Shown one piece after another: positions 2,302 to 63,490 of a stretch of DNA of 64,000 nt. Position numbers and translations under genes: made by a program. The stretch lies in NCBI RefSeq assembly GCF_054482525.1, contig NZ_CM137006.1. The stretch is one strand, 5' to 3'. Under the pieces are notes generated by a model that was given only the letters and a program-made list of their open reading frames with translations, ran no database searches and had not been told where the DNA came from. Positions within the stretch are counted from its first letter, which is position 1. Each line of letters begins with the position of its first letter.

Positions 2302-4335
2302 TCACGCGTCCGGGAACATCACGCTATGGCCCGGCGCTTCACGATGGAGATGGATAAAGTTAAGGTGCCGCTCGTACTGGTCGAGAATATCGGTGATCAC
2401 CTGCTCTTTGCTGTAGTCCATCAGGTCGTTGCCCTGGCTGCCTTCTAACAGGAAGGTTTCCAGCCGGTAGTAGGTCGATTTACCGCTACGTGCGCGGTAG
2501 GTAAAGCCCGGCACCGAATATTGCTGCGGCCAAATCTGATAGACAAAGTTTTGCTCTTCGCCCATATGCACCAACAAATCCAGATGCCCCAACTGTTGCC
2601 CCTCTTCCGGCGGCAGGCTTTTTAGCTCCACGTACGCGCCGCGCAACCGCAGTTCCTGCGCCACTTCTTCCATTGCCGGGTAACAGACCGTCTCCATCAT
2701 CTGTTTAGTGTAACGCGTGCCCGGATAATTCATCAGGCGCGAGAGACGTTTTTTCCAGCTCAGGCGATCCTGAAGCCCCAGCGGTCGCGGCGCGGTATCA
2801 CGGTTGGCACTTTCACGGCGGTAATCTTCTACCTTCAGAGATTTATACAACCCCGCCATCACGAAGAAAATCACAAAGCTGAACGGCAGCCCCATGATTA
2901 CCGTGGTGTTTTGCAGCGCGGATATCCCGTTGGTCATCAGCATGCCAAGCGTCAGCAGACCAATCGCCACCGACCAGAAGACGCGCAGCCAGCCGGGGGC
3001 GTCGCTGTTGATATCTTTAAGCTGCGAGGTGAAATTCCCCAGCACCAGCGCACCGGAGTCCGCCGAGGTCACATAAAACAGCAGGCCAGTAATGGTGGCG
3101 ACGGAGGCGCTAAAGGTAAACGCCGGATACTGCGCCAGCAGGCTGTAGAAGCCGCGCTCCGGATGGACCATCGCTTCCTCAGCAAATGCCGCGCCGCCGT
3201 GGATGATTTCATACAGCGCGCTATTGCCGAATACCGAGAGCCATAACAGCGTGAAGGTAAACGGAATAATCAACGTGCCCAGCACGAACTGGCGAATGGT
3301 ACGCCCACGCGAGATACGCGCCAGGAACAGGCCGACAAACGGCGACCATGCCACCCACCATGCCCAGAAGAAGAGCGTCCAGTTATTCATCCACTCAACC
3401 GGACGGTCGAAGGCAAAACTGTTGAGCGTCATTCCCATAAAGCGATTCACATAGTCGCCAACGTTCAGCACCAGCGCATTAAGCAGGAACGAGGTGTCGC
3501 CCATAAACAGCACGAACAGGATCAACCCCAGCGCCAGCGCAACGTTGAGTTCCGATAACACGCGAATGCCCTTATCGACACCGGAGGTGACAGAGATCGT
3601 TGCGATGATCACCGACAAGGCGATCAGTGCTGCTTTCGCCGCCATCGAATCGGGAATATCAAACAGTACGCTCAAGCCATAGTTAAGCTGCACCACACCG
3701 ATACCGAGCGTAGTGGCAATACCGAAGATGGTGCCGATTACCGCTGCAATATCCACTGAATGACCAATCGGCCCGTTAATCCGTTTACCGAAGATCGGGT
3801 ACAGCGCCGAGCGGATGGTGAGCGGCAAATTATAACGATAGCTAAAGTATCCGAGCGCCATGCCCATCAGCGCATACATCGACCAGCCGGTTAAGCCGTA
3901 GTGAAACAGCGTCCAGACCATCGCCTGACGCGCGGCCTCAATCGTCTGACCCGCGCCTTCCGGCGGCTGCATATACTGCGTTACCGGTTCGGCTACGGAG
4001 AAGAACATCAGGTCGATACCGATCCCGGCAGCAAACAGCATCGCCGCCCAACTCAGCAGACTGAACTCCGGTTTGGATTGTTCTGGCCCGAGCTTCACCG
4101 AACCAAAACGCGAACAAGCGATGCAGACCACAAAGACAATATAGAGCGTTGCCGCCAGCAGATAGTACCAACCGAAGGTTTTAGAGACCCAGTCCAGCGT
4201 GCGGCCAATCCACAGGGCCGAGAAGTCGCGAAACAGGATCGTTGTCAGGGAAAACAACAAAATCAGTCCGGCGGAGGTGTAAAACACCACCGGATTGATT
4301 TTGTCCTTTTCCCTGCTGTGTGAAAGGTCTGTCAT
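2302..4335 (-). CDS. betT: Choline transporter BetT (BCCT family)
   Basis: 677-aa polytopic membrane protein, divergent from betIBA. Confidence 0.95.
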   Translation of the reverse strand: MTDLSHSREKDKINPVVFYTSAGLILLFSLTTILFRDFSALWIGRTLDWVSKTFGWYYLLAATLYIVFVVCIACSRFGSVKLGPEQSKPEFSLLSWAAMLFAAGIGIDLMFFSVAEPVTQYMQPPEGAGQTIEAARQAMVWTLFHYGLTGWSMYALMGMALGYFSYRYNLPLTIRSALYPIFGKRINGPIGHSVDIAAVIGTIFGIATTLGIGVVQLNYGLSVLFDIPDSMAAKAALIALSVIIATISVTSGVDKGIRVLSELNVALALGLILFVLFMGDTSFLLNALVLNVGDYVNRFMGMTLNSFAFDRPVEWMNNWTLFFWAWWVAWSPFVGLFLARISRGRTIRQFVLGTLIIPFTFTLLWLSVFGNSALYEIIHGGAAFAEEAMVHPERGFYSLLAQYPAFTFSASVATITGLLFYVTSADSGALVLGNFTSQLKDINSDAPGWLRVFWSVAIGLLTLGMLMTNGISALQNTTVIMGLPFSFVIFFVMAGLYKSLKVEDYRRESANRDTAPRPLGLQDRLSWKKRLSRLMNYPGTRYTKQMMETVCYPAMEEVAQELRLRGAYVELKSLPPEEGQQLGHLDLLVHMGEEQNFVYQIWPQQYSVPGFTYRARSGKSTYYRLETFLLEGSQGNDLMDYSKEQVITDILDQYERHLNFIHLHREAPGHSVMFPDA

Positions 4336-52124: not shown

Positions 52125-52604
52125 TCAAAGCAGACCATGTTCAGCGAACGACAATATCTGCGTACCACCGACGATAAGGTGGTCGAGCACCCGGATCTCC
52201 ACCAGCATCAGTGCATGTAACAGTCGTTGAGTGATAGCCTTGTCGGCCTGGCTTGGAGTCACTTCTCCGGACGGGTGGTTATGGGCAAATATCACCGCCG
52301 CCGCATTAAAGTACAGCGCGCGTTTCACCACCTCGCGAGGATGAACCTCAGTGTGACTGATGGTGCCGGTAAAGAGCGTTTCGTGGGCAAGCAGCTGGTT
52401 CTGGTTATTGAGGTACAACACGACAAACACTTCGCGCTCAAGGGGGCCCATTTTCAGCCTGAGCCAGTCGCGGGCAGCCTGAGTCGAGGTGAATGCCACA
52501 CCCGGTTCTAGCAAGTGCTGGTCAAGCAGAACCAAGGCTCGCTTAATGGTACGCAGTGCTGGTAACGGCAGTTCAGGTGTAAACATAGTCAGTTGTTTCG
52601 CCAT
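52125..52604 (-). CDS. RadC-like JAB-domain protein (YeeS/YkfG/YfjY family)
   Basis: HNHPSGEVTPSQAD JAMM-like motif. Confidence 0.85.
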   Translation of the reverse strand: MAKQLTMFTPELPLPALRTIKRALVLLDQHLLEPGVAFTSTQAARDWLRLKMGPLEREVFVVLYLNNQNQLLAHETLFTGTISHTEVHPREVVKRALYFNAAAVIFAHNHPSGEVTPSQADKAITQRLLHALMLVEIRVLDHLIVGGTQILSFAEHGLL

Positions 52605-52978
52605 AGCAAATATCCTTAATTAAAGGTGGTGAGAATGACACTGGATTCGGCACGACAGGCGTGATGGTCGTATTCGAGTAGGAAGATGGTAATATGATTG
52701 CGGAATGCATGAGGAAACGAAGCCAGCAATGACCCAGTGACTCACACCCAATCACAGTGTTAAAAATAAAAAAATCCCGCAATCCAGCGAGGATTGCATT
52801 GGGATAATATCTATCTGTAATTATTTAGAAAAAATGTTTTTTTTCTGAGGTCTATTATAAATTTTTTTCGTTCAGAAACTTCTCGGATATGATCATCTGC
52901 TGAGTACCAAGAACGGACATTGTACCCAATAGTGAGTTAATCATTGGAACGTTGATCACCCCAATTGAAAATTTTCAC

Positions 52979-53006
52979 AATATCCAATATCCAATATCCA
53001 ATATAT
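52979..53006. repeat. Tandem 7-bp repeat CAATATC x about 4
   Basis: CACAATATCCAATATCCAATATCCAATATATC, about 27 bp left of the IS end. Confidence 0.7.
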
Positions 53007-53032
53007 CGGTGTAGAGGGCTTCTCTCTTAAAC

Positions 53033-54230
53033 TGATCCTACCCGCGTAATGTGGACACGCTCCTAAGCGAGATTCTGGTTTTCAAACTGTTTCGGGCTGA
53101 GGCCGCCATAATCGCTGTGACGCCGCCAGCGATTGTAATCGCACTTAATCCGCCGTCCGCATGATTTCCCGGCTGATAAAGCGTTCTCCGTGGATACACT
53201 CGACTTTTAACGAGTGTAAGAAGCTTTCCGCACAGGCATTATCATAACAGCAACCTTTTGCGCTCATGCTGCCATGCAGATTATGTCGTTTCAGCAGAGC
53301 CTGATAATCCGCTGAGCAGTACTGCCCGCCACGGTCGGTGTGAATTCGCCGCCACAGCGCCATCTGCAGTGCATCACAGGCAAGTTCTGCCGTTATTTGC
53401 GAGGACACCAACTAGCCAATAATAGCACGCGACCACCAGTCTATAACCACGGCAAAGTATAACAAGCTTTCATCGATGCGAAGGTACGTGATGTCACCAG
53501 CCCACTTCTGGTCCGAGCCACTAGATCTGAAGTCCTGCTTCAGCAGATTCTCCGGCACTGGCTGGTCGTGAGCACAGTAGATTAACGGGCTGAACAGACG
53601 TGAGGTTTTTGCCCGCAGGCCCTGACGACGCGAACTGTTGCTATCGTTTTGATGTTGTATTCCGGCGGCTCGTCTGCAAGACGAGCCGCACCATAACGCT
53701 GTTTTGCCTCAACGAATACCTTACAGACAGCTTCATTGAAGACGCACCGGAACTGTTGCCGATGGCTCAGTTGGGGACGACGCAGACACCAGGTATACCA
53801 GCAGCTGTGCGCCACGCACAGCACCCGACACATAGCTTTGATACTGAACTCAACCTGATATTTTTCGATAAAGATATACTTCATTTCAGGCGCTACGCGA
53901 AGTATGTCGCGCCCTTTTGGAGAATAGCCAACTCATTATCCCGCTCAGCCAGTTGACGTTTGAGGCAGGCAATCTCCGCTGCTTGTGCGCTCTCTCTCAG
54001 AGGATATTGTCTGGTGCAGTTGTTTGTAGAGCTGGGAATCGTAAAGGCTGAGTTCACGGGCGGTAGTGGCCACACCGAGACGTTCGGCCAACTTAAGGGC
54101 TTCTTCACGAAATTCAGGCGTGTGTTGTTTGCGTGACTTTTGTTGATTGATGCTGATTTTGTCATGTGAGCTACCTCTGATTGAGAGTTTACTCGCTTAG
54201 TCCCGTGTCCACTATTGGTGGGTAGGATCA
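53033..54230 (-). mobile_element. Degraded IS3-family insertion sequence (IS3-like) with frameshifted orfA/orfB
   Basis: Terminal inverted repeats TGATCCTACCCGCGTAATGTGGAC (left) and TGATCCTACCCACCAATAGTGGAC (right, reverse complement); minus-strand ORF fragments match IS3 InsE (…[23 protein letters not shown]) and InsF (MKYIFIEK..., ...[14 protein letters not shown]...CCYDNA...), split by frameshifts; no target-site duplication. Confidence 0.8.
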
Positions 54231-54579
54231 TTATTGATCAAAGATCAAGATGTGCAAAAATTCCCAAGTAAAGCCTTATCTGAACCTTCCGTTTTGTTAG
54301 CACATCTGACATTATTATTCAGTCAAATCCCTTCAGTTGATTGAGTTCAAAGGCGGTAGCTATGCTGATTTGCATTACTGTAAAACTTTTAAAGCAGAGG
54401 TTTATATAGAATTGCTCTGTTGAATAAATTAGTAGGTTCACATGGATTTTGAGTTCACCAAGCATGACAACTTGCGTTCTTCAAGCGATCCTGAGAAGCC
54501 TATTATATTAGTGTACAAGATGCCTCACGTGGCACCACTGAATTTTACATTAGACTCTATCCATTAAAACGATAAAATT

Positions 54580-56313
54580 ATGTACATAGCAAAAATTAAA
54601 TTTACAAATTTCAAATCATTCAAAGAGATGTCTTTTGAGTGCAATGATAAATTCAACATAATTGTTGGTGAAAATAATATTGGTAAAAGCACATTATTTG
54701 AGGGGGTAAGTTTATGGAAATATGCTTATGACAACCTTATTCAAGAAAAAAACAAAAACAAATTCTACAAAGCTTCAACTAACTACTACATTACCTATTC
54801 TACACTCGATCAAATAAGACTTGTTGACGATATTGATATTTTTAACGACCCAAAGAATAGCTCCGCATCAATATGCATTACAATTAAAGATGAACAAAAT
54901 GAATTTGATTTAGAGATTAGATTTGAAAAGCCAGGGATTAAAAATTCATACTTACGGATATTTAATAGCAATGGTTCTGATAATGACACACAGTTTTCAA
55001 ACTTTGAACGATTCTCAAACTATATAAAAGAAAAGGATTGCACTCTAAAAGATGCCATTTACATTTACCAAACAAGACCAATATCAACTATTTTTAGAGA
55101 TGAGCCATTTTACAATAATGCGCAGATAGAGAAAAAAATAAATATTGGAAAGTCACATGATGTCTTAAGGAATAAAATATTAAAAACCGAAAATACTCAA
55201 GCCACAAGGGTTGCACAAAAATTTGAAAATCTTGAGATTCGCCTACAAAAAGTCCTTGGTGAAAACTATATCTTAAAATTTAAGAATAGAAATCGAATCG
55301 ATGATGAGTATGTTAAAATAACTGCAACAAAGGAAAACGGGAAAGAATTGGAAATATCACTTATGGGTAGTGGTTTTTTGCAAGTCTTAGAGATATTTTC
55401 AACAATTGAGTATATGGAAAAGAATTCAACCGGTATTAACCTCATTCTTATCGATGAGCCTGATTCACATATCCACTCAAATTTACAAGCAAATTTAATT
55501 GACGAACTAAAGCAACAAACAGCATGTCAAATTTTTGTCATAACACATAATGACAGACTAACATCAAAAGCTAATGAAGGTGAGCTTTTTTATCTAAATC
55601 AGATAGTTAAGGATCTTGGTTTATTGTCTCACCTTGAAATATCTGATTATTCAAAAGTTAAAGATGGTCTAGCTAATGTACTAACAGCTATAAATGATGG
55701 AGATGAAACACCCATTGTTATAACTGAAGGAAAAACGGACCAGAAAATTTTAACAACTGCTTGGGAAAAGCTAAACCCAGGAACTCCTATGCCTTTTAAA
55801 ATAATTTCATCCGGCATTCAAATTGAAGAGGAAAAAAGAACTGGGTGCGCAGAGGCAGTTAGAAGATCTTTAGAATACATTTCAACATTAACTGATAGAA
55901 CAATTATCGGTTTATTTGATAATGATCGGGAGGGAAATGAGCAGTTCAAAGGATTAAATCGTTCTATTTTTGAACCTCATGACCTGCAAAATAACTCCCG
56001 AAAACATCAGATAAAAAATATCTATGGGCTTATTCTTCCCGTTCCTGTGCATAGAGAACGTTTTGTACAAAACAATTCTTTAACGCAGCGTTACTTCGTA
56101 ATTGAACAATATTTCCAAGATGAAATATTACTACAGCATAACATGAAAGGTGAGTCAATATTAGGTACTGAGGTATTTTTTGTTAATGACTCAAGAAAGA
56201 ATGAGTTTTCAGAGTCAACCAATGACCTTCCGGTAGAATGCTTTGGGGATTTTAGTATTTTATTCGATAAAATTTCCGATTTATTGGCTAACAATAGACC
56301 AGAAAACACTTGA
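54580..56313 (+). CDS. OLD-family protein: N-terminal ABC-type ATPase fused to a C-terminal TOPRIM nuclease-like domain (P2 Old / Gabija GajA / PARIS-like); candidate anti-phage defense protein
   Basis: 577 aa; Walker A GENNIGKST (aa 30-38), Walker B LILIDEPD (aa 288-295), H-loop ITHND; TOPRIM-like ITEGKTD (E383) and FDNDREG (D447, D449); strongly AT-rich codon usage. Confidence 0.7.
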   Translation: MYIAKIKFTNFKSFKEMSFECNDKFNIIVGENNIGKSTLFEGVSLWKYAYDNLIQEKNKNKFYKASTNYYITYSTLDQIRLVDDIDIFNDPKNSSASICITIKDEQNEFDLEIRFEKPGIKNSYLRIFNSNGSDNDTQFSNFERFSNYIKEKDCTLKDAIYIYQTRPISTIFRDEPFYNNAQIEKKINIGKSHDVLRNKILKTENTQATRVAQKFENLEIRLQKVLGENYILKFKNRNRIDDEYVKITATKENGKELEISLMGSGFLQVLEIFSTIEYMEKNSTGINLILIDEPDSHIHSNLQANLIDELKQQTACQIFVITHNDRLTSKANEGELFYLNQIVKDLGLLSHLEISDYSKVKDGLANVLTAINDGDETPIVITEGKTDQKILTTAWEKLNPGTPMPFKIISSGIQIEEEKRTGCAEAVRRSLEYISTLTDRTIIGLFDNDREGNEQFKGLNRSIFEPHDLQNNSRKHQIKNIYGLILPVPVHRERFVQNNSLTQRYFVIEQYFQDEILLQHNMKGESILGTEVFFVNDSRKNEFSESTNDLPVECFGDFSILFDKISDLLANNRPENT

Positions 56314-63466: not shown

Positions 63467-63490
63467 GAAGGAAGAAGGAAGAAGGAAGAA
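63467..63490. repeat. Tandem 7-bp purine repeat GAAGGAA x about 3.4
   Basis: GAAGGAAGAAGGAAGAAGGAAGAA in the non-coding stretch upstream of alpA. Confidence 0.7.

Follow-up and report, generated by a model that had tools for sequence, protein, structure and literature searches.

Repeat-driven change in the length of a promoter spacer is an established switching mechanism in bacteria, as exemplified by the TA repeats that lie between the -35 and -10 elements of hifA/hifB in Haemophilus influenzae, and by the homopolymer tracts in the phase-variable promoters of porA and opc in Neisseria. The promoters recognised by sigma-70 carry near-consensus -35 and -10 hexamers situated 16-18 bp apart, upstream of a gene. 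Insertion sequences of the IS3 family generate duplications of 3-4 bp immediately at their ends, and CRISPR arrays consist of repeats of approximately 23-55 bp with unique spacers of similar length between them. The feature described here, a tandemly repeated heptamer (CAATATC) in a 64-kb window (the whole stretch of DNA that was analysed), is of a kind that is already known. It is likely to represent a slipped-strand expansion in the dead promoter remnant of a lost mobile-element gene, as opposed to a switch, an IS footprint or a control element of the neighbouring radC gene.

Tandem Repeats Finder (TRF) reported the CAATATC tract with a period of 7, 3.9 copies and 100% matches (Table 1), and its score of 54 was the highest of any tandem repeat in the window. 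The tract reads CAATATC CAATATC CAATATC CAATATa, with the fourth unit (CAATATa) ending at 53005. Its perfect period-7 stretch measured 27 bp, whilst the longest obtained in 300 mononucleotide shuffles was no more than 19 bp; the 14-mer composed of two CAATATC units, expected 0.01 times by chance, was found three times, on every occasion at this tract. The repeat is real and non-random. The first-pass annotation had described four head-to-tail copies of a 7-bp unit in non-coding DNA between radC and an IS3-family element, all of which was borne out, save that its coordinates (52979-53006) were off by 1-2 bp. The heptamers do not abut the IS end, as had also been claimed, given that the terminal repeat begins at 53033 and 28 bp of non-IS sequence (53005-53032) lie between. 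A CRISPR array, rightly dismissed at that stage, is ruled out by the repeat anatomy, since the 7-bp units run head to tail with no spacers. Short tandem repeats are prone to miscounting, yet the likelihood of an assembly or sequencing artefact is practically nil, as the identical four units were present in the independent complete genome of Escherichia coli SCU-102 and in two independent metagenome assemblies. The window contains one other perfect repeat of a heptamer that was noticed, GAAGGAA x 3.4 (63467-63490; TRF score 48); this repeat is intergenic, lies upstream of a gene encoding a helix-turn-helix regulator, and is part of the same island as the CAATATC tract.

Table 1. Features in and around the heptamer tract, with positions given in window coordinates
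Feature	Position	Strand	Basis or remark
radC-family gene	52125..52604	-	Pfam RadC (E 7e-45); NCBIfam; SCU-102 annotation
Rho-independent terminator-like hairpin and T-run	52778..52798	-	8-pair stem, tail GGATTTTTTT
Truncated 5′ (promoter/leader) region of small-ORF module, ORF missing	52896..53032	+	Homology, alignment
-35-like hexamer TTGAAA	52965..52970	+	Invariant in most lineages, TTGATA in one; putative promoter element
Heptamer tandem repeat	52978..53004	+	TRF; sequence; 14-bp insertion relative to 10 homologs
-10-like hexamer TATATC	53002..53007	+	31 bp from the -35-like hexamer in the window
Conserved leader stem-loop GAGGG-CTT-C(T/C)CTC	53014..53026	+	Just before the IS junction
Degenerate IS3-family element	53033..54230	-	Terminal repeats; SCU-102 RefSeq annotation

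The window was 99.99% identical to E. coli SCU-102 across 23.4 kb, and the exact 436-bp intergenic stretch that contains the tract was found in one of 5,426 complete E. coli genomes. To the left of the tract, on the minus strand, lies the radC-DUF987-yeeU-cbtA block of the island, with radC as its first gene. E. coli NCTC9064 contains a related island that has the backbone in common up to approximately 52923 and carries different cargo beyond that point; the tract thus borders on a region of variable cargo. The terminator-like hairpin that sits between the tract and radC is kept in NCTC9064, and transcription from the repeat region toward radC would be expected to stop there. It had been suggested that the tract might contain promoter elements for the radC operon; this was rejected because of the intervening hairpin and because a consensus promoter scan of both strands of 52500-53200 found none, and the promoter-like elements that are present (see below) face the opposite way. 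An AT-rich segment of approximately 125 bp (52800-52925), together with the terminator that follows it, was shared with NCTC9064 only, at approximately 80% identity. The minus strand of this segment reads toward the terminator (52798-52778), and a consensus promoter was not found in it; the segment could represent a small transcript, or else the terminal 3′ part of a gene since lost.

The tract itself belongs to a conserved module (window-lineage sequence: GTTGATCACCCCAATTGAAAATTTTCACAATATCC) that is represented in the window by its truncated 5′ region; this region was 73-81% identical to sequence in approximately 850 E. coli genomes and in approximately 500-510 enterobacterial plasmids, mostly IncF plasmids of Klebsiella. 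These homologs run on, 42-43 nt further, into a Shine-Dalgarno sequence and start codon (AAGGA-N8-ATG) and a 42-aa ORF, MGLKPGPKPIAKSTGKPDQRRRDNKDTPGNTPGLKPSKSTGK, with a hairpin after the ORF. Searches with the ORF returned 339 protein clusters at E<=0.001, and the differences between lineages were almost all synonymous, indicating that it is a real gene. A family search for the 42-aa protein in Pfam, NCBIfam, PADLOC, PHROGs and PDB sequences gave nothing significant. The plasmid homologs of the module were located in leading regions, after ssb-parB-psiB-psiA and oriented like ssb, psiB and psiA. The putative promoter and the gene for the 42-aa basic protein form a conserved unit that is carried by many mobile elements, and in plasmid leading regions this gene comes last.

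Several further observations were made on the small ORF and its surroundings. The ORF, very basic and 42-47 aa in length (MGLKPGPKPIAKSTGKPDQRRRDNK..), was 83-100% identical across contigs of Enterobacterales, Vibrio, Acidovorax-like organisms and Chlorobium, and homologs of window 52896-53032 were sited at 5143-5271 in L005 and L006, 4001-4129 in L072-L075, 4001-4144 in L076-L078 and 3501-3632 in L086-L091. All of its contexts were mobile: on IncF plasmids as well as on chromosomes it was convergent with a Shango defence operon (SngB/SngC according to PADLOC), in other cases it closed an array of small genes and was convergent with umuDC, and it also formed an integron cassette with attC-like sites on both sides. 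A hairpin motif, GTCYGCT-N10-AGCGGACA (core GTGCCAGRAGCGGACA), marks the module's left edge; it lies at 52893-52921 in the window and recurs in L005 (2834-2863 and 4995-5024), L003 (5275-5304) and L080 (3684-3713), with homology between differing contexts stopping just past it. On the Klebsiella plasmid L005 each of the two copies ends a repeated element of approximately 130 bp with three hairpins, and one copy is positioned approximately 940 bp downstream of repA; in L080 the hairpin is downstream of the small ORF. This hairpin may be a recombination or priming signal. It gave no match in Rfam, and its interpretation as a degenerate integron attC was dropped, as R''/R' core pairing was not evident.

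Around the tract, a promoter-like core of the form TTGA(A/T)A-17 bp-TATA(T/C)(C/A) was conserved in five lineages (18-19 bp in one of them), including that of L080, whose spacer is unrelated in sequence. The distance from TTGAAA to TATA(T/C)C was 17 bp in the Enterobacterales lineages, the distant metagenome lineage had a spacing of 18-19 bp with TATA(T/C)A as the second hexamer, and the window had 31 bp, with only TATCCA at 17 bp from TTGAAA. In the homologs the core was 42-43 nt upstream of the ATG of the small ORF. Both hexamers and their spacing are retained despite the unrelated L080 spacer, as would be expected for a sigma-70 promoter, and TTGAAA-N17-TATAYC is probably the sigma-70 promoter of the small ORF. 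A strict consensus scan, which required T at position 6 of the -10 hexamer, found no sigma-70 site in either the homologs or the window, as the last base of the -10-like hexamer is C and not the conserved T. If the core is indeed a promoter, the lengthening of its spacing from 17 to 31 bp would disable it. In the distant lineage, the A-run directly after the TTG of the -35 element differed by 1 nt between L086 (TTGAAAAAAA) and L088/L090 (TTGAAAAAAAA; approximately 3420-3460), resulting in spacings of 18 and 19 bp; this is natural variation in spacer length that occurs via a homopolymer and not via the heptamer.

Comparison of copy number across related genomes, as proposed in the first-pass annotation, returned four units in sequences of the same allele and two imperfect units in the homologs. 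An alignment with 10 homologs (from E. coli O26, O104 and STEC, Klebsiella plasmids, Citrobacter and K. grimontii), every one of which has two imperfect heptamers, demonstrated that the window carries exactly 14 bp more, in register. The plasmid type reads CAtTATC CAATATaTC and the O26 type CAgTATC CAATATaCC, with a similar short form in Pectobacterium, in place of the four units of the window. Near-identical copies of the allele were those of the window, SCU-102 and the metagenome contigs L066 and L068, the latter three matching the window at approximately 99.98% identity over 5-23 kb. Four units and the same IS junction are common to all four; these sequences are nearly clonal, so that their constant unit number has little power against a modest slippage rate.

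Wider surveys were in agreement with the short form being the general one outside this lineage. A scan of metagenomes for at least three units in the conserved context retrieved only L066, L068 and four unrelated AT-rich sequences. Among plasmids, a 116-bp probe with the site at its centre matched 509 of 510 records at an identity of 95% or higher (504 of them at 99% or higher), which excludes a 7-bp indel in the matching records. For E. coli, where probes of 115-116 bp were used, 249 records were at least 95% identical to an O26-type probe and 523 to an O104-type probe, and among the matches listed all 74 full-coverage rows span 115-116 bp; the two probes resolve approximately 772 of approximately 858 records, all but approximately 86. 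No three-unit allele was found in the metagenome scan, in the 509 of 510 plasmid records or in the approximately 772 E. coli records. A gapped pattern search of species-representative genomes gave 56 matches, of which approximately 53 were judged to be due to chance from their taxa and match length, and the three true matches (Citrobacter youngae, Kluyvera ascorbata and Klebsiella grimontii) all had the two-unit form. Within the module lineage to which the window belongs, and which is 73-81% identical to the others, no intact member was found. On the sequences surveyed, the expansion is a private, fixed feature of one lineage. The earlier description of the site as a slipped-strand region is supported where origin is concerned, the clean 14-bp insertion in register pointing to slippage as the mechanism, and fails as regards an ongoing variable locus, since the allele is constant and no three-unit intermediate was seen.

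The location of the tract, exactly in the spacer/-10 region of a conserved promoter-like core, would suit a phase-variation (contingency) switch, in which the number of heptamers would alter the -35/-10 spacing and toggle a downstream gene. The precedents from other bacteria outlined above were counted in favour of such a switch, as was the finding that the same promoter in another lineage varies by 1 nt in the poly-A after the -35 element (L086 versus L088). It is nonetheless very unlikely that the tract operates in this manner: the gene to be controlled is absent from the window, having been removed by the IS at 53033, no indel was seen in more than 1,200 homologous sites with two imperfect units, all four copies of the allele agree in unit number, the scan for at least three units in context gave only the window allele, and four units are short for an efficient slippage tract. 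Neither variation in repeat number, for which a comparison within the lineage has low power, nor an expressible downstream gene was found, both of which would characterise a contingency locus. A related idea, in which the 42-aa protein would be an uncharacterised establishment or anti-defence factor, the promoter-spacer heptamer a mutational off-switch and the window a fixed 'off' allele, is considered distinctly unlikely, and no polymorphism in favour of the switch was seen.

Alternatively, the heptamers might be tandem protein-binding sites, iteron- or operator-like, that were selected in the window lineage for a regulator or nucleoid protein. An imperfect palindrome, CATTGA...TCAATG, flanks the site in the homologs and hints at an operator around the promoter, and the repeat makes three extra copies of TATCCAAT. 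In the window, however, the right arm of this palindrome has been lost and reads TCGGTG, the expansion is confined to a single near-clonal lineage, neither an adjacent regulator nor a downstream gene is present, and no match to a known motif, RNA family or structure was obtained, such that selection for protein binding appears extremely improbable from the sequence. A weak resemblance of TATCCAAT to a DnaA box or an IHF site was dropped after a by-eye check, in which key positions were found to be absent.

The IS3-family element to the right of the tract has a terminal repeat (TGATCCTACCC... / TGATCCTACCCGCGTAATGTGGACAC...) that starts at 53033 and an inverted partner (...GGGTAGGATCA) that ends at 54230, and the RefSeq annotation of SCU-102 lists it as 'IS3 family transposase, frameshifted; internal stop'. 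At high identity it was present in one of 5,426 complete E. coli genomes, and its nearest relatives were plasmid copies that are 75-82% identical. As the transposase reads on the minus strand, the end at 53033 is presumably the transposase-distal one, and its earlier designation as the 'left end' is accurate in window coordinates only. In the window the IS follows ...CTCTTAAAC, at which point the Pectobacterium homolog reads CTCTTAAACCGTTAAAGGATAACTATCATG; by this comparison the insertion point would be approximately 20 bp upstream of the expected start codon, and the ORF is absent. The flanks of the IS, AAC (53030-53032) and TTA (54231-54233), do not constitute a target-site duplication, and the DNA on its right is unrelated to the small-ORF module. 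These mismatched flanks and the unrelated right-hand DNA point to a deletion or rearrangement linked to the IS and not to a simple insertion.

With an IS end only 28 bp away, and with a missing target duplication that hints at IS rearrangement, the possibility was considered that the tract is an IS footprint, either a target-site duplication or an excision scar of the IS3-family element or of an earlier one. The heptamer motif, however, pre-exists at the same position in IS-free homologs, and the conserved module sequence that separates the tract from the IS end (53005-53032, homologous to IS-free loci elsewhere) is unlike the arrangement of 3-4 bp duplications, which are at the ends themselves. 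Two extra units in register also suit slippage better than they do an insertion or excision scar. We regard an IS footprint as scarcely probable, and the corresponding proposal of the first-pass annotation, that the repeat is a remnant of the IS target, was rejected given the IS-free homologs, the distance from the IS end and the unduplicated AAC/TTA flanks. Further to the right of the IS, a gene at 54580-56313 (plus strand) encodes an ATP-dependent nuclease-like protein of 577 aa (AAA_21/AAA_15, OLD-like), whose best PADLOC matches (NsnB, GajA and AriAB) were all far from full-length. This gene, flanked as cargo by the degenerate IS3 element on one side and a further transposase fragment on the other, is probably a defence gene that either stands alone or has been orphaned.

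Since the plasmid homologs of the module sit in leading regions, where they share the orientation of ssb, psiB and psiA, a single-stranded promoter of the Frpo/ssi type was also a plausible reading. Five published Frpo/ssi sequences (PMC11541004, supplementary file 4) were used as queries in blastn with a word size of 7, and gave no match in 52600-53040 of the window or in the module of L005/L006. As a positive control, F ssiD matched L006 at 79-372 (E 7e-22), which is a genuine Frpo upstream of ssb. Single-stranded DNA folds of the two strands had z-scores of -1.55 and -1.46, with no long hairpin that would place the -35 and -10 elements in a duplex. The Frpo/ssi promoter was rejected on the absence of sequence similarity, the control having worked, and of a long promoter-mimicking hairpin; the module is moreover rich in AT, in contrast to the apparently GC-rich Frpo/ssi sequences that have been published (PMC11541004 supplement). 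A structured leader RNA or sRNA was likewise rejected, for want of covariation and of a credible Rfam match. The RNAalifold consensus had an energy of -9.5 kcal/mol with a covariation term of -0.27, and its only conserved helix, the leader stem-loop of Table 1, was without covariation. Rfam gave no match at E<=1 in the broader scans, and at E<=10 four chance-level matches in 52600-53040 that were far below gathering scores.

We favour a slipped-strand expansion in a dead promoter remnant, the course of which may have been as follows. The seed would have been an imperfect two-unit motif, CAaTATC CAATATa, in the spacer/-10 region of the probable small-gene promoter, to which slipped-strand mispairing would have added two heptamers (+14 bp), along an assumed path from two to three to four units. 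The gene would have been lost in the E. coli lineage, before or after the expansion, through insertion of the IS3-family element approximately 20 bp upstream of the expected start codon, with the downstream part of the module gone. The expansion placed the -10-like hexamer 31 bp instead of 17 bp from the -35-like hexamer, which would in any case disable the promoter, leaving the tract as a mutational scar, putatively neutral, in a regulatory remnant that is orphaned and decaying. Without a downstream gene, variation or a link to radC, nothing indicates a present function, and the tract is most likely functionless today. It amounts to a small scar in a radC/cbtA-type genomic island, in cargo DNA that IS activity has reshuffled, and is useful chiefly for marking the lineage of SCU-102-like E. 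coli. The by-products of the analysis, namely the 42-aa gene in its varied mobile contexts and the left-edge hairpin, are more interesting than the repeat, which points to a widespread, unannotated mobile-element gene with a conserved promoter that may deserve a study of its own.

In comparison with switches of the hifA/hifB and porA/opc type, the repeat of the window is similarly placed between -35-like and -10-like hexamers, and the number of units similarly sets their spacing (17 to 31 bp). It differs from them in that the units are heptamers, in only approximately four copies, with no copy-number variation found and with the regulated gene deleted, whilst homologs of the module in which the gene is intact have a stable, imperfect two-unit sequence. 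The adjacent element resembles an IS3-family insertion with loss of adjacent DNA in its terminal repeat (TGATCC...), its two-ORF transposase on the minus strand and the truncation of the neighbouring module, but the repeat is neither a part of the IS nor its target duplication, and the IS is degenerate and without a 3-bp duplication. The closest likeness is to slippage at bacterial microsatellites, from which the tract, fixed in one lineage with no polymorphism observed, departs in nothing notable, and with which it shares perfect head-to-tail units, a whole-unit gain in register from an imperfect two-unit seed, and a location in AT-rich intergenic DNA.
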